Shown here one piece after another: positions 407-48,308 of a stretch of DNA of 64,000 nucleotides (positions within the stretch are counted from its first letter, which is position 1; every line of letters starts with the position of its first letter). The position numbers and the translations under genes are program-made. The DNA comes from Paraspadella gotoi (lineage: Eukaryota; Animalia; Chaetognatha), in the NCBI GenBank assembly GCA_051294375.1, contig CM119263.1:13966414-14030413 (forward strand), in the 5' to 3' direction. The notes beneath the pieces were generated by a model that worked only from the letters and a program-made list of their open reading frames with translations, was not told the DNA's origin and searched no databases.

Positions 407-847
<441 letters not shown>

Positions 848-4095: not shown

Positions 4096-6487
4096 TTACT
4101 CCAACACGACCATCTCGACGTCGACGACGCCGTACTTCCCGCACAGGCGCCCCACCCACCAGTCCGTCCTCCGCAAGTAGTGATCCTGCATGACCTCGAT
4201 GAGGTCGCCGGCGCGAAAGGCGAGGTCGACGGCTTCGGCGCCGTCGAAGTCAACCAAGGCGCGGGCGGCGAATTTGGGGACGGAGAGCCTGACGACGTGT
4301 TGCGGGGATACGAGGCCGAGGGCGACGGAGGGATCGTCGCGATGACGGGCGACCCACTTGGGCGAAGGATGACTCTCTTCAAGGACGACGAGAACGTCGC
4401 CTTCTAAGAATGACTGTTGATGAATAATGTGTACAAAGCTTTTGATTAAAACTGAAATTTAAAGTTAAACTCTGACTTTTCAGTGAATAAAAAAAAAATC
4501 AGTGACCCCACTCAAAAAAAATAGGGTCTCTGAAATTTAATAAACTTAAGTCATGCGTGCGAACCGCGGAGTGGGGGATGTGTCAAATTGTGTCTCCAAA
4601 TTATGATAGATTTAAAAACTTGAAACACTTTCGTACATGTTCGAACTTACCAAATCCTCGTCGACAGCGCCATTGTCGGCTTTCCAATCGCAAAGCGCCG
4701 CGCATTCGAAAATCGGCTCCAAATCGAGGCGCGCCAACTTACGAGGGCAAACGAGGCCGACGACACCTCGGACCGCGCCCACCCACCATTGTGTCACGTG
4801 ATTGTCCGAGATGACGGAAACGAAATCGCCTTTAGTGAAGTGAAGGATGCGTTGGTCCGAGACGTTGTCGAACCCGGAGAGAGCCACGCAGTGGAACTGT
4901 CACCAAACAATACTTATCATCAATCTATTGAATTGAGCTCTTCCAATGTGCGGTCGGAGAAAAAGAACGCTGGTCAATCATATATTCCTCTTCTCCTTTT
5001 CTTCACCTTCGAATCCTTTTCCTTCCTGACGATCCATTCCGGGTCGACGAGGCCCACCGCCCCTTCTCGTTTGGCGGCCATCTTTCCCGACGGATGTTCC
5101 TCTTCCAAGACTTCCAACGTCTGCCCCTTGAAGACCTTCAGCGCCCCCTCGGCCTTCAGAGGTGTGTCACCGAGCGCCACGGCTTCGTAAATAGATTCCT
5201 GTTCGAGTCGGACGAGCGACGCCGGACGAACGAGGCCCAGTTCTCCGTGGAGAGCGCATACCCAGTAGCCTGGTCAATGTGGTCAATGAAAATCATTCAT
5301 GGGACATTAAGGTTTTTGTGAAATTTTCTTGGTTTTTTTTTTTCCAATTTCTTACAGACTTTCATTTCGTCTTTACATATAAGCATTATATCTTTTATTA
5401 CATATTTACTAGGTACATCTTATTTCTTCGATTCCCATCTAATATTTTCAATCAATTCCTCACACCAACCGGAAGGATGGTCCGTCTGCAACACCTCCAC
5501 GCGGTCGCCGACTTCGAAAGCCAAAAAACGTCGGTCCATTTTGTCGGTGGAGAACATCCAACTCTGTCGCAGGCGAAAGCTGATCCTCTTCGATTTGGCG
5601 GGCACCACTTCCGTTTTGGGCTTGGTGTCGAATGTGGGCGTGGCCGAGTGGCGCGAATCGTCGATAGCTGATGCGCTGAAGAGCGGGCGCAGGCGCCGCC
5701 GGACGACGCGGCGGGGAGAGACGAGGCCGACGGAATCGTCGAGACGGCCGCGGAGACTTTTGTTGGAGGAGGGGGAGGGGGTCAAGGAGTTGTGGAGAGG
5801 CTTATGTTCGATTTACGTTCAAGACGACTATTTTTGCTTAACGTTATTTGATAATCTTATTTTTAAACTAATTAAGATCTGTCCCAACAGCTGAAATCAG
5901 TTTGAAAGCTGAAACCTTAAAAATTAAAATGCTTACACGATGATCTTGTCTTTCTTCATCTCAGCAATTAAAAGTAAAATTATCTAGGTCTTTTTGGGAC
6001 TTAAACTTTTAATTTTGAATTCTTTTAATCAGCGGCCGATGACAAGTTCGAAGAGGAAATATATTTATAAAACATGCAGCCACTTTATTTCGCGTTTTAT
6101 CATTATAAAAGTCATTTGCGTTCCTTTTATACGATAAATGTACATGACATACACAATTACTTCTCTTAATTCCTTTTTTTTTACCAACGGGAACTTGTAA
6201 GTACTTCAAACCTCACGCGAGCATCAAATCAAAAGATTAAAGTCAAATTCGCCCAGAAATCAACACTTCATTGTATGATATTGTATTGTCTGGTCGCCAA
6301 AACAGTCTAACTACTGAACTATACAAACTTACTAGTCGTGCTTCTCGCCGCGATCCACGATTTCGATGACGTCGTTTTTACAAAATTCTAAAAATTCCGA
6401 GTCTTTGGCCGAAGGCGAGTCCATCAACGCCACGTAGTCTCCAGCCACGTCGTCCAGCGAGTCTTCATGTCTCTTTTGTGCTTCCAT
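4096..6487 (-). CDS. Multi-SH3 protein (six tandem degenerate SH3 domains, ~422 aa), 5 exons
   Basis: Exons 6487-6333, 5756-5470, 5269-5007, 4896-4651 and 4413-4096 join in frame via GT-AG sites (1269 nt). The product repeats an SH3 pattern (AL..D/F...L.F..GD.I.V....WW.G....GLV.P..V), e.g. ARALVDFDGAEAVDLAFRAGDLIEVMQDHYLRRTDWWVGRLCGKYGVV and VALSGFDNVSDQRILHFTKGDFVSVISDNHVTQWWVGAVRGVVGLVCP. The exon-2 donor could be 6 nt further on. Confidence 0.85.
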
Positions 6488-12969: not shown

Positions 12970-13691
12970 GGGGGTGTTACGACGCCGATGCGATGTAACC
13001 GGCATTGTTAAAACAACGATATTTTCGCTTCAAGAGACGAATTCCAGTTTTGGAAAATTTTGCTTTTGCTCCGACGGAGGGCGCTACGCCGCTACGGCTT
13101 TGGATGTCGTTGTTGCATATGTATCATCACAGATGAATAAGAGAGAATAAGAGTGTTGCACTCGAGACGTCAATTTTTCTCATGAAATGAAACGGTAATT
13201 TTAATGTTTTGCGCCGCGTTTACTTTATAAACTATCAAGTATTCATTTTTTATTTTGATTATTATTTTGATCATATGATAGCATTTCTACGTGGTCACGT
13301 GATAACATAAGCATGGAACATGTGCCAATTATTAAGTTAAATGGCTTATTAATACATGAATTATGCCGCATTGACTTTATGAGATTATGTGACCGCAATG
13401 TAAGAAACACATGAAAAATACGCATATGAATTATGATGGTACCTAACATTTCTGTATTAACAAAAATAAAGCAATATTACCAGAGTTGTCAAAAATCTGA
13501 GCTTGGTTTATTATAAGCTCCAGCTGACAGCTTCAGATGCATTCCATGAAAAAGCATTAATCAATTCTAATTTGTTTGTCTTAGACTTAATTTGACGGAT
13601 ATTTCCGATTTTAATAATCGGCTACTAAACTAATCCATTATTTTTTCTTTCATCCTTCCTAAAGTTTTATTTTATCTTCTTTCCGGAAAAA

Positions 13692-16199
13692 ATGGACGAC
13701 TCTATTGTTAACGTGTCTGAGTTAGTCATGTAAAACAGCAACTAAAAAAGAGCCGTTACTTTGTTGCTTTACGAAATAATTGCCTCCAAAGAATTTTTTT
13801 AATTGAAGCAAATTGAATTGTGCTTTTAAATTTAAGGAAACTGGACCATTTCAAACGTATCGAGGGTAAGTTTTGATTATCTGGATATAATATTTGAATA
13901 ATTATCAAAGTTTGACGTCGATATTCTGACTATTTTCTTAGACATCTCGCGATATCTCTTTGAAAAACGAATTTATTACAAGTATAAAGGAACATTATTT
14001 TTAACTGAAATAATAGAATCTAATTAATAGATTTATAAATCTTAATCAAATTTCCCCAATAAAAATAAATACAGGGACAACATCTTCTATATCATCAATC
14101 GCTTTTGAAACGGACATAATGACGAAAAGTCCTCTTATCGACGAAGGGACCATCGACGACGCCTCCAAGAATCCCTGCGCCGCCGCCGCCGCCGCCGCTG
14201 CCGACATACCAGACTCCGTCGCTGCGGTTCCTGAGAGCTCCGCCGCAGCCGCATCAGCAGCTCCAACATTCTCAAGTGCAAACTCAAGCCAAGTTCCGAG
14301 TCCGAAACAGACGGAGGTTCTCCGACAAATGCCAGTTGCTGATGCGATGCAGAACCTCTACGTTGAAGGTCCGCCTGTCGCGGAACCTGCGGCTTGCCCG
14401 ACAGTTGACCACCGTCCTCCAGCTCTTCCTCGAGAGGAGCGTCGTCCTTCTAGCTGTTCGCAATCCAACCACGAAGCCTCTTCCGCAGATTCCTCGCCGC
14501 CTCCTCAGCCAGCCCCGTTTTTCTTTCCTCCACCAATGACTTCTGTTCCGTGGCCTGCTTATCCCTATCCCGTACCACAATACGGACCGGAAATGCCCGT
14601 TGTTCCTTGTACTTCTCCCTGCTGCATGTCTCGAATACCGGAGCCGCCGCCTCCGCCACAGCAGCATCCGCATTTGGCCTACCAGGCTTACCCCATCTTC
14701 CAACCAATACCCACCATGGTGGATCACCCATTTTTCCATCGCAACGTCGGCGGCGCTCCCTTCGGTCCGCTAGGCCCGCCGCCTGGAATGGCCGGCTCAG
14801 ATCTCGGGCCTCGCGGGGGCGTGGGCTTCAGCCGAAGTGGCGCTCTTCGGGAATGCTACAACTGCCATCGCCCCGGTCACCTCGCTCGTCACTGCGCCGA
14901 GGTCTCCAGCGACAAGCAATGTTTCCACTGCCTACGCTTCGGCCACGTTGTCAGGAATTGTCCGCAGACTCGACAATGGACCCGGAGGACGGAGAGGATG
15001 GTCGGCACCGGGAGTCTCTCCTCTTCTCCCACGGATCAAGAGTGGTCATCTGACTCTGGCGGCGACCACGCGTCAGACCCCAACGACTTCCGGTCGGTGC
15101 CCGGTGACGCCGCGTCTCCCGGCGCCGAATCGGGCTTCAATCCGACCGACTACGACGTGAATCCGACCAACGCGAGATTTTTCATCATCAAAAGCAACTC
15201 GGAGCGCGACGTCCGCTCCTCCATCGCTCGCGGCGTCTGGTGTTCCACCGATCACGGGAACCGGAAGCTGGACCAAGCCTTCGCCAACCAGCGTCCCTTT
15301 GGGCCAACCCTTCTCCTCTTTAGCGTTAACAACAGCGGAAAGTTCTGCGGGATTGCGGAGATGACGAGCCGAGTGGACTTTGCCAAATCTTCGGGCATCT
15401 GGACCAACGAGCGGTTCCGCGGGGAGTTCCGGCTTAAGTGGACTCACGTCAAGGACGTCCCCAACTCGGCGCTGCGCCACATCTACTTGGCCAACAACGA
15501 GTTCAAGCCCGTCACTTTCTCGAGGGACACGCAGGAGGTCGGCATTGGTTTTTGAGATATTTGGGGAGCGGGGGTGACTATGACTAGGAGAAATCAGACG
15601 TTTCGGGTACTTATTATTTTTTTTAACGAAACTGAAAGGTTCCGTCTCGGGAGGGAAAGCGGATGCTCTATGTGATGCACAAATACAAGCACATTTCGTC
15701 GATGCTTGATTCGGCGCCTGCATCGGCGTCCACGACGGTCTCGGCCGCCGCTACTGCGGTGGAGGCAGTGGCGAACGACTTCGAAGACGGGCTGTTGGAG
15801 GCGACACGCGAGGCAGTCGAGGGATTCCTCCAACTCCCGGTCGGAATGACGTTTCATAAATTTCGACTGCCTTACCCGCCGATGGGTCCGCTGCCGCCAA
15901 TTCCCTACGGGCCCGATAACGCAGCGTTACCGCCGCCGCCGCCGCCGATGTCTACGCTGCAGCCGCTTCTTCCTCCTCCGACGCCAATCGCGGGCGCGAG
16001 TAGCGGCTTATCTGCCGTCGACTCTACCGTAGGGACTTTGCTCCAAGAGAAACAGCAGCAGCCTTTCGAGTCTCGTCAAGACCTGCAGCAAGAGCAGCAG
16101 TCCCTTCAGCCGCCAAAAAAGAAATCGCCGAGACCGGACTCTTTGGAGGAGTTTCCATCTCTGCCGAAAAAGACTCTAACTCCGCCTTTAAATGCCTGA
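13692..16199 (+). CDS. CCHC zinc-knuckle + YTH-domain (YTHDF-like) RNA-binding protein, ~693 aa
   Basis: Exons 13692-13720, 13837-13865, 14075-15537 and 15639-16199 are phase-compatible; the first two small exons are less certain than ORF 14119 onward. The product has a Pro/Gln-rich region and two C-X2-C-X4-H-X4-C knuckles (14854-14961). The YTH domain reads ARFFIIKSNSERDVRSSIARGVWCST...LLFSVNNSGKFCGIAEM...GIWTNERFRGEFRLKW...KDVPN...NNEFKPVTFSRDTQE|VPSREGKRMLYVMHKYKHISSMLD, matching the YTHDF pattern. AATAAA at 16404 and 16423. Confidence 0.92.
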
Positions 16200-16884
16200 T
16201 TGACTTTTGGCTTCGGCGCTTACCCAATTTTTTTTCTGAGTTGATTATTTTTAACTTCAAAAAAGGGAATTTTTCTATAAAATTGACTTCTTGGTCTATT
16301 TAATTTTTACAATTTTTTTTCATTTATCTTTTACAAAAAGTAATTTTTTTTATATTTTAGTTTTACACTTAGCTTAGTTTAAATTTTGATATTTTTACGA
16401 TTGAATAAATTGCTTTTTAGTTAATAAAAACGGTTCGGATTTTTTTTTATAATTCATGTTACTTTTAGCGGATTTCAGCTACTATGAACTATGTCCTTTT
16501 TTGTCTCACTTACATCTATCTTCTTTTACATAGTATTATTATTATTATTCTTTCTTTTCTTACAAAAGAATCGTTCAGTATAATGTACGTATTCGTATCC
16601 TTTTTGAAAAACATGAGTTTCAAACCCCATCTTTCGCTGGCCTCATCCCCCTTCGCCTCTCTCTCTCTGTCCCATCCCCCGGCCCTAAGCCCCCGCGCCT
16701 CGCTTCCCCCTCCCTCGCGGCTCAGTATGTTTTCGTGGAGCTTTTCTCGTCTGATACATTTGTCAAAGTAGATGTAGTCGGTTTCTCTTTGCGGCGAAGG
16801 GAAATCCGCGCGGATTCGGCGACCGATGGACCGAATATCCATTTATGAAATCCTTCGGCGGAAATTGCGAGTCGCCTTGTCGCT

Positions 16885-16915
<31 letters not shown>

Positions 16916-16994
16916 ACCCGAAATCTTGATGGTTGAAACGGCCATTTTCTCGCTCGCTTTTTTGCCTTTCATATTATTGTTCTTTCTCAGCAAC

Positions 16995-27277: not shown

Positions 27278-28990
27278 GTAATGGGAAGACACAAAAAAAG
27301 GAAGTAAAAAAAGAGAAATTGATTGTCCATTGAACAATGTTCAATTTATCTATGAAGGAGGGAAAGCGCTATGTTCGATCTTTGACGCTTTTGCCGGACG
27401 GAGACGGACTCGTGGCTTCCGGCGAATCCTCGTCTCTCGGCGTTTGGGATCTGAAATCATCGTCGCAGCCGACGAAGAAAGGTTGGCCAGCGATTTTGAC
27501 TCGTTCTGCTGTTTGATCGATCAATTTGGTCAGTGCCCACTACTAATCGATTTCTTAGTTATGAAAATGGTAAAGTTGTCCAACTTGTTTAAAAAATTCT
27601 CTCCGAACACGTCAGGAAGAGCTTGTTTAGCTTGTCTAGCTAAAGCTGCCATCCAATTTTCACTCCGATTTCCAGTTTCGTTGAAATGCGCGGAATCTGC
27701 GACCATCTGTTTCGCTCACTCGATCTCGCCCGACGGACGAACGCTCTTCGTTGCCCTCTCAAACGGAGGCGTCGGCATCTGGGACTTGAGGGTGAGTCTT
27801 TGTTGATTGAGGGAAGGGTGGGGCGGGAAAGGGTGAGGCGGGAAAGGGTGAGGCGGGAAAGGGCGAGGCGGGAAAGGGTGAGGCGGGAAAGGGTGAGGCG
27901 GGAATGCGAAGCCGAAGGCGCGGTTTAAAGTTGTGTCCGCGAAAGCAAAAATCACGAATTTCGCGCTCATTGTCTCAATATGTTCTAAGAAGCCAAACTT
28001 TGGTGCCTATTTATTTTCTTGAGTGGATTTTCCGACTGAAAATCGATGAGAAGTCGGAAAACAGTAGTCACGTGATTTTAAGATCCCTATTGAGTGAACG
28101 TCTTATTCCCAATTCCCATCCACTTTGAAACTCCGCCACTTGACCGAGTTCGCTGAAAAGTTCAAGAGCCTTTTTCAGGTCGAACCCGGATTTACGAGTA
28201 ACAACGACAACGACAACAACAACAACAAACAACTCCTCGTTTTCTCTTCCCAGATCGAGGCTCAAGTCCACCGATTCCACGCCCACGACGACGGCGCCTC
28301 CTGCTTGGGCCTCCTCTCCGACGGGTTTCGCTTCTGGTCAGGAGGACTGGATCACTTCGTCCGCCTCTGGGACATGCGCGGACTCGGAGGGGGCCACCCC
28401 GCCGGGTCGTCGCCCGGTGCCGGGGCCGCGGGCGCCAAGGCTCGCGAATTGCGGCGCCGACGAATGACGTCGAGAGTTTACGGACTCGACGTGGCGCCGC
28501 AGGGAGATTGGGTCGTCGTGGGGTGAGTGGGGAAGGGAGGGCGGGAAGAGGAACGGATTAGTGAGGGACGAGCAAGGATCGTGATGGGCGAAGACGAGTC
28601 TGATCGAGACCGATTCCCCGACTCCAGGGGTCAGGACAGCAGCGTCGACGTCCTCCACTCCACCCTCGACGACCAGTTCCGCCTCCATCTCCACGACTCC
28701 GCCGTCATCTGCGTCAAATTCGCGCCAAACGGAAAATGGTTCGTGTCAGGCGGGAAAGACGGATCGCTCAACGCCTGGCGCTCGCCCTTCGGAGCCTCCG
28801 TCTTTCAGGTGCCGTAAATTTACAATATTAGTTGTGATATTAATGATATTAATTATACTAATGCTGATTATCTCCGCAGTCGAAAGAAAAGGCGGCCATC
28901 CTTTGCGCCGACGTCTCCGTCGACGGGATTCTCGTTACGGGTTCTAGTCAAGAAAAGGCCACCGTTTATCAAGTCAATTGCATACCCTAG
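25011..28990 (+). CDS. Divergent Groucho/TLE-like WD40 protein (groucho paralog), ~619 aa from the ATG at 25011; 5' end uncertain
   Basis: Exons 25011-25265, 25465-25630, 25866-25990, 26061-26154, 26257-26419, 26840-27026, 27112-27180, 27358-27481, 27676-27791, 28254-28522, 28628-28808 and 28880-28990 join in frame (1860 nt). Groucho signatures are present: SKP|[25 protein letters not shown]|[62 protein letters not shown]|SKE. Confidence 0.9.
26620..26837. repeat. Intronic (TTTA)n-like AT microsatellite
   Basis: Degenerate TTTA/TTA runs. (GAAA)n/(TTTC)n tracts also occur at about 27190-27275, 53575-53955, 59130-59208 and 60438-60535. Confidence 0.9.
27811..27904 (+). repeat. 15-bp G-rich tandem repeat (GCGGGAAAGGGTGAG) x~5.5 in a groucho-paralog intron
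   Basis: Read directly from the sequence; begins about 20 nt after the 5' splice site at 27792. Confidence 0.9.
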
Positions 28991-29801: not shown

Positions 29802-32800
29802 ATGGTTCATCGAAGAGACGCCGTTTTAGCAATTTTACTTCTCTCCCCAGTGCTGGGTAAGTCCTTAGGAAACTAATTTCATGAATATGATAAAACGAGC
29901 TAAAATATGTGTTTTTTTAGATTTATTATGTTGTTAAATTACTTTTCTTTATAAAAATTTTTAAAAATCATTAATTTGGGTCTAAAATGAAACAATCTTC
30001 CAATAAAAATTTAGCAATAAAACCAAGTGGTGTATAAATTTTTTTTGATTGTTTTCTCATAAAAAACAAACATTAAACAAATATTATTTTAAAAAGATTG
30101 GAAAAAAATCCGTCTAAAAGTATTCTTTTCGGTTGGATTTTGTGTCTCAGACTCAGTATTAGAAATATAATTACAGAAACTACGTATAATTCAATATTCT
30201 GTATCGATCATCTGGCACATGTTAGTAAAATTAAATATTCATATAAGAAGTTGTTTTCTAGCACTTTCAATTTTTAAAATTAGCAAGATTTATTTTAATA
30301 TCAACAAGGATTCGTGGGCGGCGTCGAGAAGTTGGCTTTCAAGAAAGGGTCGACCGATGCTGTGTTCGGCAGCCTCTGCCCCGAAACTCCAAAGGAGACC
30401 ACCGTCTGGTTTAAAGTGGAGAACGAAATTCCGAAAAATCTATGGGCATGCCATGGGCCAGGTGTTGGAGAGACTCATAAAGACCAGTTATTTGAATAAC
30501 GAAGTCAACGATAATTTTAATCGCACCACTAGGCCTTTGCAAAATCGTCAACCACATCGACTTATTCCAAAGGGACTCGTCGAAGACCCAATCGATCTCC
30601 CTCAAACTCATTCCAAACGCAGACTCCGTTCACGCAGGATCCTTCAATTGTCAAACAGACCCGAGCGGATTCGACGATTCCGTTGTCAATCAAGAATTCA
30701 ATTACGAAGTCACTGTTTACGGTTAGCGAGGCGACTCGGTAGTGTCTAAACGTTTTTGTCTCCCCCATCCGTACGTCTGGTATCTTTATCTCTCTTTTCT
30801 CTTCTCTATTTTCTATTTTCTCTTTTTCTCTTTTCTCTTTTATCTTTTCTCTTCTCTCCCTCATCGATTTATAACGTTTGCTTTCCTCAGAAAATAAACT
30901 GACGTGTGACGACAATGTCAGTCAACACGTTGCCGGACAACCGATCGAGCTGAGCTGCGGCATCACCGCCTGGGGAAAAGGAAGCCCCGATCTGGAATTT
31001 CGGGTGAGTTTAGTTCGCGCGAGTCGAAGGGGCGACTTACTTTGTTTCTCGTCATTAACTTGAAGATTGAAACCTCCTTTCTAGGTCGTTGGCCAAAACG
31101 GCGCCGTGGAATCCGTCATCGGATTCGACTCGAGAGACGGAATGAACGTGACCAAGCGCTTGACTCTGCGAAAGGAACTTCACGGGAAGAGTCTCCACTG
31201 TGCCTTCAAGGGATTCGACGGGGCGTCGCCGTCCGAACCCGTCGCCGATTGCGTCGTCAATAACCAACCGCTTAATGTTTTATGTGAGGATAGTGACGGG
31301 GTCGGGAAGGGGTCGAGAAAGTTTCAGGAAGGGGTCTTAAATTATAATTTAAGACGGGTAATAAACAAAAATATTTTATATCCTCAAAACTTATACCGTC
31401 GGTCCGTCTGTAAATTTTCCATTGTCAATTGTCAATAATGGTGATGCTTGGGGCAACTTGACTATGGGGTTAAGACATTCAAGTCTTTGAAATACATTTC
31501 CTTTTCCAAACCACAACCCCATTTTCACAGACCCTCCGGAGATAACTTCCGGTCCCATGGGTTACGCCTTCGCCAAACAGGGCGAAGAGGAGACCCTCTC
31601 CTGCAAGGCTGTGGGCAACCCTGCCCCGACGACCAGCTTTTACTACAACGGCGACCAAGAAGTGTCGGGCCAATTCATCACGATCGACGAAAGTGTGAAG
31701 AGCGTGACTTGTCAAGCGAAAAACTCTCTCGGCGTCGCCAATTCTACGAAGAACATCAACGTGGTGACGTTGGATTGGAATCACGACGCCGTCATGAAGG
31801 AAGGACAGACTTACCCTATCGAATGCGACGTTCGGCAATCGAATCCGTCGCAGGCTCACGAACTGCGGGTTCGTTGTGGTCGGGTCGGATCACGGGGGTT
31901 TCTATTTTTATTGGGAGTGAAGGGCCACTTTTAGGTCGATCTCCCTCCGTTTATCTAGAAATATATATTACGTTATTAAGTCGTTAAGTTACAAAAAAAA
32001 ATTCATATAATACTTAAATTTTATAAAACTAACATCTAGAAAGATTTCAAAATATTTTGGTTCTCGATTCCAGTTGAGTCAGTTCGTGGGCGACGAGAAG
32101 ATCTCGACGACGTCGGCCTCGGCGACGGCGAAGAGGGAATGGAACGGAAAAGGCGTCGTCTGCGTCGCCAACAGCGGAGACTTCGAATACAGAAAGGAAT
32201 TCAAAAAACTCAACGTTCAATGTTAGTCTTACCAATTGCTTGCTCGATAACTGATTAATCGATCGATGTATCTATTTTTAAAAAAAGATCAATCCATCAA
32301 TTTATTCATAATTAGATTATTCTATCAATCAATCGAGCAAGCTTGCCAGTTTATAACCAATCAATTATGGAAAAAAAAACCCATCATATAGCAAGCACTC
32401 ACTTTCTTTAAATGTCCCTTTTGTTTTCCTCCTCAGACGGACCTTACGTCACTTGCGAGGCGCAGACGTCCGACGCCGACTTCTTCCTCCGCCACTGTCA
32501 ACTGGCGCAGAACCCGCGGCCTTTCACGGACGTCGTCAAAGTCAGCCCGAAGGCGCTTACCGTCGATTTGGAGATCGAATGGTACGAAGAAAGTTTGGAA
32601 AAATTATTTATTCATTCTTATTAATTTATTTAATTAATTTAATTAATTTATTTTATTTATTTATTTATTTATTTCTCGCGGAGCAACTCTATAAGTCCCT
32701 TTTCGGTCGGTCGGTACGTCTGTCCGTCGGTCTGTCCCACTTACGTTAAAAATGCTCAGAACTTGCAATATAGTTGGTTGCACAATGCTCATTTGTTAAG

Positions 32801-35518
32801 AAGGGAAATCCTCAAATTAAAGTGACTTCTAGCGCCGCCTTCAGAAAATCCTAAACTATAAAAAACAAAAGACGGAATTCCGACGCAGTGCGTGTCATAA
32901 ATACATGGGCTAAGAAAGTTATTGTGGTCATTTCACTTCGAGTCACGAGAAATACACGTGATAAGGCAGTCACTGCGGCGCAACACATTCGAATTACCGT
33001 TCTTGTTTATTGGGATCGTTGATTTTTTGTGTGGATTTAATGACGACCCTCTCGTCGTAAACTTCAGGACCGTCGAAGCTGATTTTTCTCGCAACTTTAC
33101 CATCAAGTTCCCACGAGCGGCGCTGAAAGAAGCCAACTCGGAAATGGTTCTCGTCATCATCAAAGACCAAGTCAACAAAGAGGTCGAGTTCAAATACGAA
33201 GGTAAGGGACGAAAATCATCTCGTGGCATCTTTAAACCAGGGAGAGCCTTACCCAAAATTTCCTAACGGAGCTTTCGTCGCCGCCATGTGATTATCTTTC
33301 TTCCCGTTGACGAATACAACACTTCGCTTTTTTCTCTTCCGTTTTCGTTTCCCCCAAAAAATAAATAAATAAAACATAAAAACCAAAAAAAAAAATTATT
33401 TGTTATCGATCTTATCTCGTTTTTTCTCACGACGCTTTTGTAGCGGATGACCCGGGTTTGTATTCAAAGTTTTACAACTGGGGTTTGTCGACGCGGTTAA
33501 CCTGATGATATATACTTGGGGGCAGTTGCTCGGTCACAACTAACACGAACCCTTACTGGCTTGCCCGAACTACAATTGAGACGTGAATCGATAATTGTCA
33601 TTATTGTGATTTCCTTTCGTATATTTAAGTTTATGAATGTAATTATACAGTATTTCATTTTATTTTATTCTAAAAATTATAGCATTGTTTTTTCGGATTT
33701 TTAATTAATATTTTAATTAGGTTCTTAATGGCAATAAGAATTGCATTAATAATGCAAAGAGCGAGTTGGAAACTCAGTAAACGATATAAAATTGACTAGA
33801 CAGGACGGTTCTCAAAACACTCGATGTATTGTAATTTGTTATTTTGCAAAGGATTTTAAATCGATTAATCAAAAATGCGCGGGGGCGTGACGTAACTGTG
33901 TTAACGTCCTCCATAATTAGAATTCGATCGGTCACGTCTCGATTTTAATTCTAAAGCTGAAAGGGTGAGAGGGACTTGACGCCCCCCGGGGCTTCGCCAA
34001 CACATTTTCCGGCAGCCTCGGATCCGTCAAATAAGTTCAAAAAATATCATTGTGAAACTCTTTAAATAATTAAATGATAATAACAATAATAATAGTTACG
34101 ATAATTAAAATATTCAAACAATAATAATAATAATTAAATCTTTAGATAATTCGTTTATTCTTTAAATAAGGTTTCAAAAAATTGGCACACCGCTCTAATT
34201 TATCTTCGCACCAAATGATAAAAAAGATTTGGTTTTATGTTCAAAATTATTCCCGAAAACACGATCATTCTTTATAATTTTCCCCCGTCACGAAAATACG
34301 AAATGAAGTATTTTTTTTTATTCGGATATATAATTTTTTTTCTTTTAAATTTAAAGAATCGCACTTGTTTCTTATGTTGTTTTGTGTCGATGCTACTTAA
34401 TCGGAATAGAAAACAATAAATTACGCTTTTTTTTTTTTTTGTTTTTTTTTGTTTTTATTTCGTAAATTTGTCCCGTTTGTTTTTTCGCCATAAGTTACCT
34501 CCAATTTTTTTCCCAAATTTTTTAACTATTTATTTTTAATTTTTACTAGTGTTTAAATGTTTTCCTAATGTTAGATGTGTGGGTCAATCCGCGGGATTTC
34601 ACGACGCCTCTTTTTTTCCCCTTCTCACTCATCATTTTTCTTTTTGATCTCCGATTTCTCAGAAATGTCGGCGGCGATGATAGGACTCATCGCCGGAGTC
34701 ACCGCCGGCGTCATTCTTATCATTCTCATTATCGCCCTCTGCGTGATGCTCATCAAACGGGGGAATTTCGTGGCGCCAAAGAAAGGTTCGTCGCCCTTTT
34801 AAAGCCTTCGGATATTTAACGACGCATTAGAGAGCGTTAACCTTGTATATTACAACAGCAAAAAAAAAACAAAAACTAAACTTGGTCGTTTATATTTTAA
34901 GGTCTGACGGAGGCGGAAAAGGGGGATTATCGGTATCCGTCTGACGACGGGCACGGACAACCTCCTGCCAACAGATCCATGAACGTAAGAACCCTAGTTA
35001 TATTCTTTAGCTCTTGTTCTATTTAAATCTATTTAAACATCTTGTATCCATCCACCTTTATCCTGACTCGCTACAGGGCTACGACAACAAAGTGGCCCCG
35101 AACGACGACGGCCTCGTCTACGCGGATCTCGCTTTCTCCGATCATCAGCCGCGAAGTCGCGCGCCGATCATCGATCCCTACAGGTTTGTCGCTTCACGAC
35201 TTGTCCCAACATGGAAAAGCGAATTTGGTCAACGAATCATTAATTATAACGTGATATTCGTGTAGCTATTAATATTTTGGATATTTAATGCTCTGAACAG
35301 GAGAACCTCAACTCAGGGTTTTTTCCACTGTTAAGTTCCAGATTATATTTATAATGATTATATAGGAATTATTACATTTGAAGTTAATATAACGACAGCC
35401 TATACTAACTAAAGTAACAATTTAAACTTACCCTCTCGTCCTCAGCACAACGGATTATGCGGACATCGACTTTGGCCCTCACCCTCCGCCCTACAGCGTG
35501 TCCGACAGCATAGGCTGA
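29802..35518 (+). CDS. Type I Ig-superfamily receptor (~5 Ig-like domains, TM, ITIM+ITSM tail), ~619 aa
   Basis: Exons 29802-29856 (signal peptide MVHRRDAVLAILLLSPVLG), 30309-30461, 30533-30721, 30891-31003, 31085-31283, 31531-31868, 32074-32221, 32437-32581, 33068-33201, 34663-34785 (TM IGLIAGVTAGVILIILIIALCVMLI), 34902-34984, 35077-35183 and 35446-35518 join in frame (1860 nt). Ig motifs include C...VWFK...HAGSFNC, LSCKAVGNPAP...TCQAKNSLG and LNVLYPP. The tail carries LVYADL, TDYADI and PPPY. Confidence 0.88.
32672..32900 (+). mobile_element. Probable Helentron-associated/DINE-1-like (HINE) non-autonomous element fragment in an intron
   Basis: Starts TTTCTCGCGGAGCAACTCTATAAG followed by a (GGTC/GTCC/GTCT)n microsatellite, the typical HINE 5' layout. 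A related inverted 5'-end copy lies at 37482-37525. The 3' boundary is approximate. Confidence 0.5.
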
Positions 35519-37636: not shown

Positions 37637-39110
37637 TCACACGGTATTTGTTAACAAAAAAGTTTTCAATAATGCGCCCACTAACGCAAGTGCAGTCGCC
37701 GCCCAAACCCCTCGCCGCCGACTCACGCCCCCATTACATCTGTCCGTGTCGCAGAAGCAGATGTCCGTCCAATTGTCGTCCGTGCTACATCCGGTAGCCC
37801 GTTTCCGCACGGGCGGTCCCTGGACGCAGCCCCGGATCTCGCTGCCCAACTTTCTGTAGTCCTTGCAGCCGGGGCAGTCGCAGTGGCCTGGGCTGTTCCC
37901 GCACCACCCGTGGGCCGAGCAACAGGGAAACAGCCCCGCGGGGTCGCACTCGAACTTTCCCTCTTCGTCGTTGGCGTCGCATTTCATGTCCGTGCGCCAA
38001 CGCTTCTCCCGGAACTTAACCTGAGGATTTATTTATTTATATTTATCTATTCATTCATTCAATGTGTTTATTTATTTATATATTTCTTGAGAGGATTATG
38101 TAACATCAAAAATTTGATACAGCCTTATAAACGATAATCAGACATAACGATGTTAAAAAATATTTATTTCCTTTTTTTTTAAATTTTTGAATATCTACTT
38201 ATATTTATTTTATTTATTTTCTAGTATTTAATCATTTCTTTGTTCGTTTTTAATTTAAAGGTAGGTATTTTCACCTTGAAACATTTCCCGGCGCAAGAGA
38301 CGAAGAGCTTCTCCCCCTTGGCGCAGGAAAAGAGTCGCATTCTGGGCAGAACGTTGCGGTGGAGATTAAAGACGCTGGCGGTGGACTGATAGAGCTGGAG
38401 TCGTTGGAGGATGTCCTCTCCCTCGCACTCGCAGGTGATGTTGCGGCGTCGCGGGCGAAACTTCTTCTTCCACTTGGGTCGCGTCGTCGCCGTCGAGGAC
38501 GTCGACGGAGAATCGGCGTCGCCGGCGGAAGGTTGGGATTGGTTGACGGGGTGGTTGGGGGACGGCCTGTTGGGGTCGATTTATTCATTAATTATTAATT
38601 AATTTATTTATTTGAGTTAATATTTTATTATTGGATGATCAGATTTTAGATTTACAAAAAGAAAGGGTAATCGTCGGGTAGAAGCTTTGGATCAAATCCC
38701 GGCGTAAATAACGATGGGTAAGTTGACCGCGGCGCCTCGGCGTCCATCCGATTCTTGGCGCCGCTATTTCCGGCGTCGTCTTCCTTCTTCAGATCGCGTC
38801 CGTCTTCTTTGTTTTCCTTCTCGTCGTTGTTGTTGTTGTTCTCGGATCCGCCTCTGGCGTCCGAAGGAGTCACCCACTCGTCATGAGGCACTGGTTTCGG
38901 CGTCGTTGTCTCGCGCGCCGCCGGCGTCGTCGTTCGAGAAGCGAACGTCATCCCCGGCGGGAAAAAGGTGGCGGGAACGGGGAGCGGCGGAAAATTCGGG
39001 GGCGGGAAACTCGGCGGCGGAAAGCCCGGCCGATAGTTGGGCATCGGTTGCCCGGAGACGGACGTCAAGGTCGTCAACGACAACAACAATAACAACAACA
39101 AGAACGACAT
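37637..39110 (-). CDS. Secreted, probably GPI-anchored three-finger (Ly6/uPAR/quiver-like) protein with an inserted hevein-like Cys-rich module, ~376 aa
   Basis: Exons 39110-38656, 38566-38275 and 38020-37637 join in frame (1131 nt). Order: signal peptide MSFLLLLLLLSLTTLTSVSG; Pro/Thr-rich region; KKKFRPRRR; then ITCEC...CAKG...SCAGKCFK...[WRTDMKC..CDPAGLFPCCSAHGWCGNSPGHCDCPGCKDYRK]..IRGC...C...ICFCDTDRCN; then GG and a hydrophobic C-terminal tail. Confidence 0.85.
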
Positions 39111-39674
39111 TTTCGAGAAGAAAGAGAGAGAAGAGATCGATCGGCCTCTTGATAGACGAATACCCAGATTTTCGGCTGAAAATAGAAATTTAGAAAAAAG
39201 TTTCTTGAAAAGGAGTTCCATTCCCGTTTGTCGGTTTGCTTGTTGGTTTTTGGTTTTGGGAAGATTTTGTTATGATCCTTTTTTTAAAAAAAAATTCCTT
39301 TATCTTTCGCTTGTTTGTTTTCTTGTTTGTTGTTCAATCGTGAGGAAAGAGGCGAGGTCGGTTTTTTGTTTGTTTGTTTATTTTCGTTTTCTTGCTTGCT
39401 TGTTTAATATCGTCCGGGCGGGAGAGAGGGGGTTAACGGGAACATTTTCCCTTTCTCTTTCTTTTCGTCGAAACTTTTTCGTTTCCAAAAACTTTTCTTG
39501 ATTCCATTTTCGAAATGAAATTCGTGGTTGAAGTCGAAGAAGAATTTCGCAAGACGCGAATTTCAAGTCGAGTTTCTAGTTTTTTCACTTCAACGCGATT
39601 TTCTCGTCCCAACTTCCTTTCCTTCCCTTTTTGTCCTTCGGTCGTTGTCCCTTGTTCTTCGTTGTTGTCCCTCG

Positions 39675-45836: not shown

Positions 45837-48308
45837 TCAAAAGGCGACGGCATCGAACGAGGAAATATCGCCCGTCTGAACTCTGTACACGTGAGTGTTG
45901 TTATTCACGTTGCTGTCGTTGTTGTTATTGTTTTCGGCTTCGATGTCGAGGCAGCAAGAGTCAATGACGTCGGGCACCCGCGCGGCTCCGCGCGGGATCT
46001 CCTCGTAGAGTTGCTCCGGCCGCAACACGGCCACGCCCTTCTCGTCGCGAACCACGTGTTTGATGGCTGCGCTCTTGGCGCGGAAGAACTCTACGTCGAT
46101 GGGCGCCACCACTGTTTCGGTCTCGGAGGAGGTGGAGTCGCTGAAGGAGGCTGTGCCGTCGCGAATGCGCGCCGGCGACGTCGTCCGAGATCTGAAGACG
46201 TTGTCGGCGAATTCGCGGACGAGATCCATTTCGGAATCCGTCATCACGCGATGGGGGAGGGGAAAGGCGGGCGATGAGACGGGCGGCGGAGAGGCGGGCA
46301 GCAGGGAGCTGTCCGACGTCACTGACCGTGACCCGGCGCGTCGGTGGGAACGGTAAATGTCGGGCATCTGCTGTCGTTGGTAAATGGGGTGCTGATCCCG
46401 TGGGTCACGCGCCACGAAGACGGACGTCAAGTGCTGATCCGGAGACCCGAACTCGAGGTTGATAGTCTTGGCATTCTTGGTGACTTGCTGCTGGGAACTC
46501 ATCTTGTAGATGCCATAGACTTCTTTATCGTCGGGATCCAGGTCGGAGAGGATCGTGGAGGCGGTGTCGTGCGGCAAAGTGGAAGACGAGGAGACGAAAG
46601 TCTGTCTAAAAGCGTCTCGCGCTTCGCCAGCCTCGAAGTCGTCGTCATCGTCGTCGGCGACCGGCTTCTTCCTCAACAAGACGACACCGGTGACGACGGT
46701 GACGACTAGAAGAACCCCGCAAACGATCGCCATGGCAACGACGATCATAGAAACTGGGCGATCGGCTGAGGAGCGCGATCGCTCGGCGAAGGTGACGACG
46801 ATGTCGTTGACTCCGCCTCGGGAGGAGGTCGTGGTCTCCACGGACGAAGGCTTGGAGGAGGAAGAGGAGGAAGTGACTTCGAGGTCGTTGACGACCCTGA
46901 CGACGACGGTGGCCGTCGTCGATTGCTTCTCGGCCGATTTGGTTTCGGCGGCGACGACCCTCAATACAACCTCGTCCCTCTCCAGTTGATGAGAGTAGAG
47001 ATAGACGCGGCTGTTGGCGCGACTCCGCTGCGGCTGATCGGGGAATACCCTGAACGCCGCGGCGTCGACGCCGTCGTCGAGGATCTGCACCTCGAACTCT
47101 GAATTGGCGCCGGCGTCGGTGTCGATGACGACCATATCTTCGACGAGGGGCCGGTTGGTGCCAGAGAGGATTTCGCTTCGTTTGACGGTGACCTCTTTGA
47201 AGGCCGGCGTGATGACGGGGGCGTTGTCGTTAATGTCGATGACGAGGATGGTGACCTCCACGTAAGAGACGCTCTCGGGGCCGCGGAGAACCACGCCGGC
47301 CGAGACTTCGGAGACGCGGACTTGAAGGACTAGCGTCTCGACGCCGTCGCGAAGCGCCTCGCGGTCAACGCGTCCAGTGGTCTTGAGAACGCCGGCTTGG
47401 GTGATGCCGAAGAGACGGGAGGGGTCGTCAACGATCTCGAACTCGAGGCCGTGGAAGGGTTTGGGGTCGGCGTCGCCGTCGACCGCCTCCAACCGCCCGA
47501 CCGCGGACCCGACGGGCAATTCCTCGTGGATGGCGACGTTGAGGCGCTTCACCACAGGGGGCGTGTCTTGAATGTTTAGGATTTCAGTGCGGACGGTCAT
47601 TTCCGCGAAGTTGCGTCCGTCCGTGGCTTCGAGGATGAACCCGTAGGCGCGCGTGGTCTCAAAGTCCAGAGACCCGACGAGGACCAGGTTGCCCGTCCAA
47701 CTGTTGTCGTCGGTCTCGGACGGGCGGACGTCGAACTTGATGCAGGCTTCGGGCGAATCGGGAAGCGGCTTGCAGCGCACCTCGACGCCCTCGTTGGAGG
47801 CGTCGACGTCCTTAACTACGATGCGGAGGAGGTGCGTGTTGACGGCAGAGTCTTCGGGAATCTGCAGCGACTCGGAATCGGCGGCGCCCTCGAAGTAAGG
47901 CGCCTCGTCGTTCGCCTCCGTCACCTCGATGGTCGACAAGACGTTTGAACTGCGCTCTCCGTCAGAAACGCTCAGTGGAAGCAGGATGTGGTCGGAGCCG
48001 GCGCCGTCGCCGTCCACGTCGAGCCGCTTGATGAGGAAGACCTCGCCGGTGGCGGCGTCGACGCGGAAGAACTCTGTCCGTTGAGTCTCGGAATTGGTCG
48101 TTGCGTCGTAGAAGGAGAAAGAGACGCCTTTGCCTTCAGGGTCGCGGGCCGCGAGGCGGTAGACGGGCGACTCCTCGGAAGGAGTCGTCGCCTCAGAGAT
48201 TGAGAAATAGTTCATGTCGTGTTCGCGGATGAAGTAGGGCGGGCTGTTGGCTGCCACCGCGACGACAAAGGCGACGAGGAGAAAGACGGGGGACATGGAG
48301 AAAGTCAT
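45837..48308 (-). CDS. Single-exon cadherin-related type I membrane protein (823 aa; ~4 cadherin repeats)
   Basis: One uninterrupted ORF. It has a signal peptide, cadherin motifs (ARDPEG, LDVD, EANDEAPYF, IPED, LDFET, NIQDTPP, VDRE, DINDNAP), a Ser/Thr linker, TM SMIVVAMAIVCGVLLVVTVVTGVVLL-RKK and a ~280-aa tail with no catenin-binding motif recognised. The N-terminus resembles Cad87A/Cad86C/CDHR1-type non-classical cadherins. Confidence 0.93.
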   Translation of the reverse strand: MTFSMSPVFLLVAFVVAVAANSPPYFIREHDMNYFSISEATTPSEESPVYRLAARDPEGKGVSFSFYDATTNSETQRTEFFRVDAATGEVFLIKRLDVDGDGAGSDHILLPLSVSDGERSSNVLSTIEVTEANDEAPYFEGAADSESLQIPEDSAVNTHLLRIVVKDVDASNEGVEVRCKPLPDSPEACIKFDVRPSETDDNSWTGNLVLVGSLDFETTRAYGFILEATDGRNFAEMTVRTEILNIQDTPPVVKRLNVAIHEELPVGSAVGRLEAVDGDADPKPFHGLEFEIVDDPSRLFGITQAGVLKTTGRVDREALRDGVETLVLQVRVSEVSAGVVLRGPESVSYVEVTILVIDINDNAPVITPAFKEVTVKRSEILSGTNRPLVEDMVVIDTDAGANSEFEVQILDDGVDAAAFRVFPDQPQRSRANSRVYLYSHQLERDEVVLRVVAAETKSAEKQSTTATVVVRVVNDLEVTSSSSSSKPSSVETTTSSRGGVNDIVVTFAERSRSSADRPVSMIVVAMAIVCGVLLVVTVVTGVVLLRKKPVADDDDDDFEAGEARDAFRQTFVSSSSTLPHDTASTILSDLDPDDKEVYGIYKMSSQQQVTKNAKTINLEFGSPDQHLTSVFVARDPRDQHPIYQRQQMPDIYRSHRRAGSRSVTSDSSLLPASPPPVSSPAFPLPHRVMTDSEMDLVREFADNVFRSRTTSPARIRDGTASFSDSTSSETETVVAPIDVEFFRAKSAAIKHVVRDEKGVAVLRPEQLYEEIPRGAARVPDVIDSCCLDIEAENNNNNDSNVNNNTHVYRVQTGDISSFDAVAF

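Follow-up and report, generated by a model that had tools for sequence, protein, structure and literature searches.

The DNA analysed was a stretch of 64,000 nucleotides from the chaetognath Paraspadella gotoi, referred to here as the window. Its forward strand carries, between 13774 and 16431, a gene of three exons that joins two tandem CCHC zinc knuckles to a YTH domain in one predicted protein of 659 aa, with the ATG at 14119, the stop at 16199 and no internal stop in the spliced frame. The window is animal DNA, with cadherin, Ig, SH3 and WD40 exons. Two WD40 genes, which we take to be Groucho/TLE-like, were located at 407-667 (+) and 27282-28944 (+); their final exons are similar, and the second is a diverged duplicate. 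Several diverged SH3 domains (Pfam) are encoded by one gene at 4099-5812 (-). An Ig-domain membrane-protein-like gene occupies 31085-35262 (+), and 37640-39269 (-) holds a Cys-rich gene that matches a chitin-recognition family weakly. At 45840-48305 (-) a cadherin is encoded in a single long open frame; its best matches were at 21-29% identity, and no close relative was found among them.

The first exon of the fusion gene is a 5' UTR exon (13774..13865, +; X8 record 20), of which 13774 is the contig start only, so that the true 5' end may differ. Intron 1 (13866..14074, +; 209 nt, GT..AG) lies in the 5' UTR, which contains an in-frame stop and no ATG. The second exon (14075..15537, +) holds the start codon, a low-complexity N-terminus, the knuckles and most of the YTH domain (aa 1-473); the open frame 14017-15555 contains both knuckles and the YTH domain. 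It is followed by intron 2 (15538..15638, +; phase 0, 101 nt, GT..AG, placed from contig junctions) and by the coding part of exon 3 (15639..16199, +; X8 record 21), which encodes the end of the YTH domain (to about aa 497), a Pro/Gln-rich tail and the stop. The 3' UTR was covered over 16200..16431 (+). The preliminary description had begun the gene at 13692, where an ATG gives 13 codons and then a stop; the coding start was therefore moved to 14119. The AATAAA sites that it mentioned were found at 16404 and 16423.

Both splice junctions were read directly from assembled contigs of run X8; this run, like X10 and X11, was assigned to RNA by guess only. X8 record 20 joins 13774-13864 to 14074-14169, with 209 nt bounded by GT..AG missing, and X8 contig 21 joins 14209-15535 to 15637-16431 with intron 2 absent. 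Neither joint was present in any of the three DNA runs (0/3). The introns and the flanks at 13000-13659 and 16432-16950 were without X8 cover and were covered by the DNA runs. Seven homologues read straight across the intron 2 junction as RDTQE-VPPREGKR, which agrees with the phase-0 junction 15537/15639 proposed earlier. A single spliced X8 contig of 2153 nt bears the knuckles and the YTH domain together, and the claim that they belong to one transcript was upheld in this probable RNA run. Mis-assembly was rejected as a source of the fusion, since one X1 DNA contig spans the stretch (run X1 is possibly the source of the window DNA itself), X5 record 10 extends across the whole coding region, and the same fusion occurs in independent organisms. 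Within the stretch of Pro residues in the tail, run X7 showed one base difference and an in-frame deletion of 3 nt (at 15843 and 15930).

The N-terminus had been called Pro/Gln-rich. It is rich in Pro (14% overall), whereas Gln makes up only 5%. An RGG-like stretch had also been pointed out there; the letters are present, yet the segment has a mean identity of 0.14 to the homologues and is not conserved, and 0-2 RG dipeptides were counted upstream of the knuckles in those homologues.

The knuckles (aa 246-281; 14854..14961, +; Pfam zf-CCHC) are separated by a spacer of 8 aa. They were located exactly as quoted in the preliminary description, at 14854-14895 and 14920-14961, and no other match to C-x2-C-x4-H-x4-C occurs in any of the six frames across the 64 kb. 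Pfam returned both expected families, with zf-CCHC at 25.8 bits (cut-off 20.8, 2 stretches) and YTH at E 1.5e-39. The knuckles form the best-conserved segment of the protein, with an identity of 0.86 across homologues, and in each an aromatic residue follows the first Cys. Such CCHC knuckles are described as binding G-rich single strands in a review (PMC12787238), and those of the fusion protein very probably bind RNA in a G-directed manner.

Retroviral nucleocapsids were the best PDB matches of the knuckle pair (E 1e-6), followed by LIN28 (8e-5). Counted by hand against the CNBP pair as quoted in the preliminary description, knuckle 1 agreed at 11/14 positions and knuckle 2 at 6/14. Knuckle 2 and its flanks share 18/19 residues with a metagenome protein, L001 (pairwise E 2e-14). 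L001 (222-1499) is a lone protein with a helical N-terminal part, an acidic FPPL and two knuckles, the second near-identical to that of the window. Its N-terminal part, which we take by eye to be Gag-like, matched none of the capsid families of Pfam even at E values as high as 1, and nothing in the PDB. No relatives of L001 were found in sequence searches, and its predicted structure was poor (pLDDT 42.1). The fusion protein itself was not accepted as a retroelement Gag: Pfam found no capsid family in it, none of 105 ORFs examined in the rest of the window gave an RT or integrase family such as an adjoining pol would have, and the gene is a spliced cellular one.

The first part of the YTH domain (aa 339-473; 15133..15537, +; Pfam YTH) lies about 70 aa past the knuckles in the same reading frame, as had been stated. 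It includes K358, N360, D364, W374, C375, W428, F433, R469 and D470. Its assignment to the YTHDF type was borne out by E values of 2.6e-48 to 1.3e-44 against YTHDF1-3, with YTHDF2 at 2.6e-48, as compared with a best value of 5.1e-15 against YTHDC1/2, obtained with YTHDC1. The pocket residues D364, C375, K358, R469 and D470, equivalent to D422, C433, K416, R527 and D528 of YTHDF2, were kept in 8/8 members of the family. In the aromatic cage W374 and W428 (YTHDF2 W432 and W486) were likewise kept in 8/8, and the third position was changed from W491 to Phe in 8/8; Phe also occupies this position in a Tigriopus YTHDF. In YTHDF2 numbering Y418 was replaced by Asn in 8/8, as at N363 of YTHDC1, and Asn is found at this position in yeast Pho92-type YTH proteins as well. 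Further family-wide changes near the RNA surface were R441 to K and TNS to TFS. A SIFDDF segment present in 175/201 other YTH proteins was missing from the fusions. Structure prediction from the family alignment was poor (pLDDT 33.8).

Y418 is reported to touch N3 of m6A through its backbone NH, with Asn in its place in YTHDC1 (PMC9466600), and a review (PMC8016981) gives markedly lower binding when the equivalent Y397 of YTHDF1 was mutated. The latter effect counts against full m6A affinity of the fusion YTH. Since W374, W428 and the pocket residues are kept and the N418 and Phe-491 changes occur in other YTH proteins, the domain is nonetheless likely to bind m6A through its cage.

Outside the domains three conserved islands (aa 185-208, 298-313 and 641-651) stand amid sequence of identity 0.14-0.30. 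An aromatic motif at aa 185-208 (LAYQAYPIFQPIP...; 14671..14742, +) is a candidate partner-binding site, with an identity of 0.74 to 7 homologues as against 0.18 upstream of it. A Ser-rich motif at aa 298-313 (SSSP...EWSSDSG; 15010..15057, +) has an identity of 0.78 between poorly conserved linkers. Across 15010-15070, in the linker from the knuckles to the YTH domain, SSSP and DSG-x2-S are conserved, the window copy reading DSG-x4-S. This DSG-type motif resembles a phosphodegron consensus and is presumably a candidate phosphorylation or degron site.

The third island, SLEEFPSLPKK (aa 641-651; 16140..16172, +), contains FPxL, a predicted RACK1-interacting motif, and was present in 8/8 members. 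All of them read EEFP[S/N]L, the motif lies 11-16 aa from the C-terminus in 8/8, and its identity is 0.72 against 0.22 for the flanking tail. Among 201 non-fusion YTH proteins FPxL occurred in 4 at any position and in 0 among the C-terminal 30 residues. The reverse holds for [ST]WA, which was found in 0/8 fusions and in 124/147 non-fusion proteins with at least 200 aa before the YTH domain. The SWA helix is widely kept in canonical YTHDFs, sponge and tunicate clusters included. When tails were shuffled, FPxL arose by chance in 3-18% of trials and [DE]FPxL in 0.4-2%, and the eight sequences share ancestry; conservation and position of the motif, not its presence, therefore carry the RACK1 argument.

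In PMC12823453, ZAK and SERBP1 are reported to bind RACK1 blades 2-3 via FPxL, the SERBP1 residues being F404 and L407 in an acidic-FP-x-L near the C-terminus. The W239-ADIAS helix of YTHDF2 is reported to bind blades 5-6 directly (bioRxiv 2023.11.20.565808). Both sites and their motif patterns are described in bioRxiv 2026.08.26.747346, where the helix pattern is S-aromatic-A-x-hydrophobic; the WADIAS helix fits it. On this footing docking of the fusion protein on RACK1 through its C-terminal FPxL is given a slight preference, with the reservation that the invariant 11-mer SLEEFPxLPKK could serve a partner other than RACK1.

Homologues were collected with aa 235-473 as the query, which yielded 73 proteins out of 676 candidates. 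Seven homologue clusters ranked best, with 67-72% identity, a length of 668-736 aa and both Pfam domains; 3 further family clusters are N-terminal fragments, and the 10 clusters come from JGI, Logan and ENA records. The other 63 proteins of this search contained no knuckle (0). When 1.84 billion representatives were searched with a profile, 3599 matched, of which the best 150 were examined; the fusion family made up the top three and one fragment among these 150, and neither a CCHC nor a CCCH motif was found in the 140 that were newly seen (0). A knuckle was thus present in 0/203 other YTH matches examined, in keeping with the expectation that the architecture is not common in databases. Its supposed lineage specificity was also sustained, in that the layout of knuckles and YTH was confined, among the YTH matches examined, to the window and seven homologue clusters. 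Two more organism labels hold the family, X11 with a contig that has pieces of both the knuckles and the YTH, and X10 with the YTH. Among related contigs matched at 80%, 12/14 of the differences listed (those away from contig ends) were synonymous, as compared with 0.22 expected for random changes.

The same organism has a second fusion-family gene (X8 record 8, 5420 nt), which matches the aromatic motif (14686-14747) and the YTH domain (15300-15380). In the DNA of this second copy (X1 record 4) the match ends near NNSG-KF and AT-rich sequence follows, which would fit an intron absent from the window copy. A third YTH gene of the organism (X8 record 9, 12824 nt; X1 record 3) matches 15169-15203. 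Its loose ends resemble a fragment, P0107, in which KRMLYI and SSM(I/L)D occur as they do in the fusion family. The gene lies on a very long contig; it may carry further domains. A separate canonical YTHDF had been proposed as something to look for in this genome; the second fusion copy together with this further, differently diverged YTH gene identifies the window gene as a divergent paralogue. It is the most divergent member of the family, with the longest tip branch (0.215), and with a second copy in the organism some redundancy is possible. Where the window copy has one long coding exon at 14075-15537, the genomic fragments of its relatives are interrupted, after SSDSGDPSS (P0070, P0071, P0073) and before GKFCG (P0097). 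The window copy is consistent with intron loss or with an RNA-mediated duplicate, yet it has an intron at RDTQE-V.

A tree of 196 YTH domains was built with FastTree, with 25 proteins without anchors skipped and 7 cluster members dropped. The 8 fusions formed one clade (support 0.999), which in place of a firm position among the animal YTHDFs took one near the root on a stem of 0.59, where it was probably drawn by branch length. P0107 was its sister at 0.89 in FastTree and did not appear as the sister in a fast IQ-TREE.

The gene is best explained, from its sequence and that of its relatives, as a paralogue of cytoplasmic YTHDF readers, spliced, conserved and restricted to one lineage, which gained two CCHC knuckles. 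In the mechanism that we propose, the YTH cage would hold m6A and the knuckles would grip nearby single-stranded guanines, both modules acting on one RNA and so narrowing the target set. The C-terminal FPxL would dock on ribosomal RACK1 in place of the SWA helix of ordinary YTHDFs and would compete for its site with SERBP1-type factors. In effect the protein would regulate, on ribosomes, how a subset of methylated mRNAs is translated or degraded; stabilising and destroying these messages are both compatible with the sequence. With the cage mostly kept, the first Cys followed by an aromatic residue in both knuckles and a knuckle conservation of 0.86, recognition of m6A and of G-rich sequence on the same RNA is plausible and reasonably probable. 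The whole chain, from m6A cage through G binding by the knuckles to FPxL-RACK1 docking in exchange for the helix, is held tentatively, at a little under an even chance. A sharper version is rather unlikely as it stands: nucleocapsid-type knuckles would make the m6A reader sequence-selective, its ribosome anchor would have moved from the RACK1 helix site to the FPxL site of SERBP1 and of ZAK, a collision sensor, and it would act on a defined class of G-rich methylated RNAs, possibly of retroelements, only while the FPxL site is unoccupied, for instance where ribosomes have stalled or collided.

The alternatives differ chiefly in which part of this chain they replace. A bipartite reader of m6A and G-rich sequence could work in granules or with decay factors, its C-terminal motif binding a partner other than RACK1; the invariant SLEEFPxLPKK exceeds the four-residue RACK1 pattern, and there are two more conserved motifs, at aa 185-208 and 298-313. 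A Tyr-rich motif of plant ECT2 is reported to bind PABP (PMC10702811), and by analogy it is possible that the aa 185-208 motif does the same. Against this, the loss of one RACK1 motif alongside the gain of a match to the other would be an odd coincidence, and an acidic-FP-x-L near the C-terminus is how SERBP1 presents its motif (F404, L407); we regard this as a minority possibility, though the strongest of the alternatives. Drift of the YTH domain away from m6A, towards RNA that is unmodified or carries a different modified base, with specificity coming mostly from the knuckles, would suit the long stem and the several fixed substitutions round the pocket, and fission yeast Mmi1 is described as reading sequence instead of m6A in PMC8016981 and PMC10617740. 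The equivalents of W432, C433, W486, D422, K416, R527 and D528 are nevertheless invariant in 8/8, and both main substitutions are known elsewhere (Asn in YTHDC1 and Pho92-type proteins, Phe in the copepod), which leaves such drift unlikely.

The remaining two concern the origin and the state of the gene. Capture of the knuckles from a retroelement Gag, with the protein watching methylated, G-rich retroelement RNA on ribosomes, would account for the rank of retroviral nucleocapsids (E 1e-6) over LIN28 (8e-5) in the PDB and for L001, which shares knuckle 2 and its flanks (18/19) and has an acidic FPPL of its own. However, the N-terminal part of L001 is without Pfam or PDB support, the predicted L001 structure was poor (pLDDT 42) and no relatives of the protein were found, and knuckle 1 fits the quoted CNBP motif at 11/14; CNBP is absent from the PDB matches, so that the PDB ranking says nothing against a CNBP origin. 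Capture from Gag is accordingly rated improbable. Least probable of all is that the window copy is a duplicate, now decaying, of the other fusion gene in this genome. It has the longest tip branch of the family (0.215) and lacks two introns of its relatives, but its 659-aa frame is open, a spliced contig exists, and all motifs are kept while the linkers diverge, with differences that are mostly synonymous.

Apart from the m6A site itself, YTHDF readers show little preference for sequence, and their target choice and coupling to translation are still debated. A natural YTHDF with a second RNA-binding module would allow one to test if an m6A reader is redirected when sequence specificity is added to it, and the fusion could be used as a template for designed selective m6A readers. 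If RACK1 binding were confirmed, the apparent exchange of motifs would argue for ribosome docking as a required part of YTHDF function, and an m6A reader would join the factors that compete with SERBP1. These points are limited in breadth to a single narrow clade, whose members are non-model animals, and YTH is already known in fusions with other domains.

The fusion of CCHC knuckles to YTH is real and apparently undescribed: no description was found in the literature searched, including PMC11622538, PMC12787238, PMC13629450, PMC10617740, PMC12864844 and PMC7641849, with subscription journals and InterPro outside the scope of the search. The fusion protein resembles human YTHDF1-3 and invertebrate Ythdf in its DF-type YTH domain, its Asp at the D422 position and its long low-complexity N-terminus. 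It differs from them in having two CCHC knuckles, an internal YTH domain followed by a tail of about 160 aa, a C-terminal FPxL in place of the SWA RACK1 helix, and the changes Y418 to N and W491 to F. Plant, metazoan and yeast YTHDFs are described in a 2023 paper (PMC10617740) as having no folded domain besides YTH, and planarians are reported to have an expanded YTHDF family (PMC12864844).

With the RACK1-interacting motif carriers SERBP1, ZAK, LARP4 and RNF10 the fusion protein shares an FPxL in a disordered segment, placed near the C-terminus as in SERBP1. These carriers are recognised by a conserved FPxL/F in a poorly conserved low-complexity segment, and FPxL was found in such a segment in 8/8 members. 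None of the four is an m6A reader, and RACK1 binding by the fusion protein is a prediction only.

The knuckle pairs of CNBP, LIN28 and retroviral nucleocapsids have the same tandem C-x2-C-x4-H-x4-C arrangement, in which the first Cys is followed by an aromatic residue. The fusion protein combines two knuckles with YTH and is without a conserved RGG box, cold-shock domain or capsid domain. CNBP has 6-7 knuckles and an RGG box and no other domain; a CNBP-type layout was rejected for the fusion, which has two knuckles only and an RG segment that is not conserved.

CPSF30-L, a CCCH-YTH protein of plants, apicomplexans and heterokonts, likewise has zinc-binding RNA modules N-terminal to its YTH domain. 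Its fingers are CCCH and its role is described as nuclear 3'-end processing (PMC7641849), whereas the fusion has CCHC knuckles and a DF-type YTH, which matched the CPSF30-L YTH weakly (PDB 5zuu, E 2.5e-14). Membership of the CPSF30-L group was rejected on the finger type and on the YTH being of DF and not DC type. The coral eTudor-YTH protein, described in the same source, is a further lineage-restricted animal protein in which YTH is combined with other folded domains; there the partners are Tudor and B-box domains, and in the present fusion they are CCHC knuckles.
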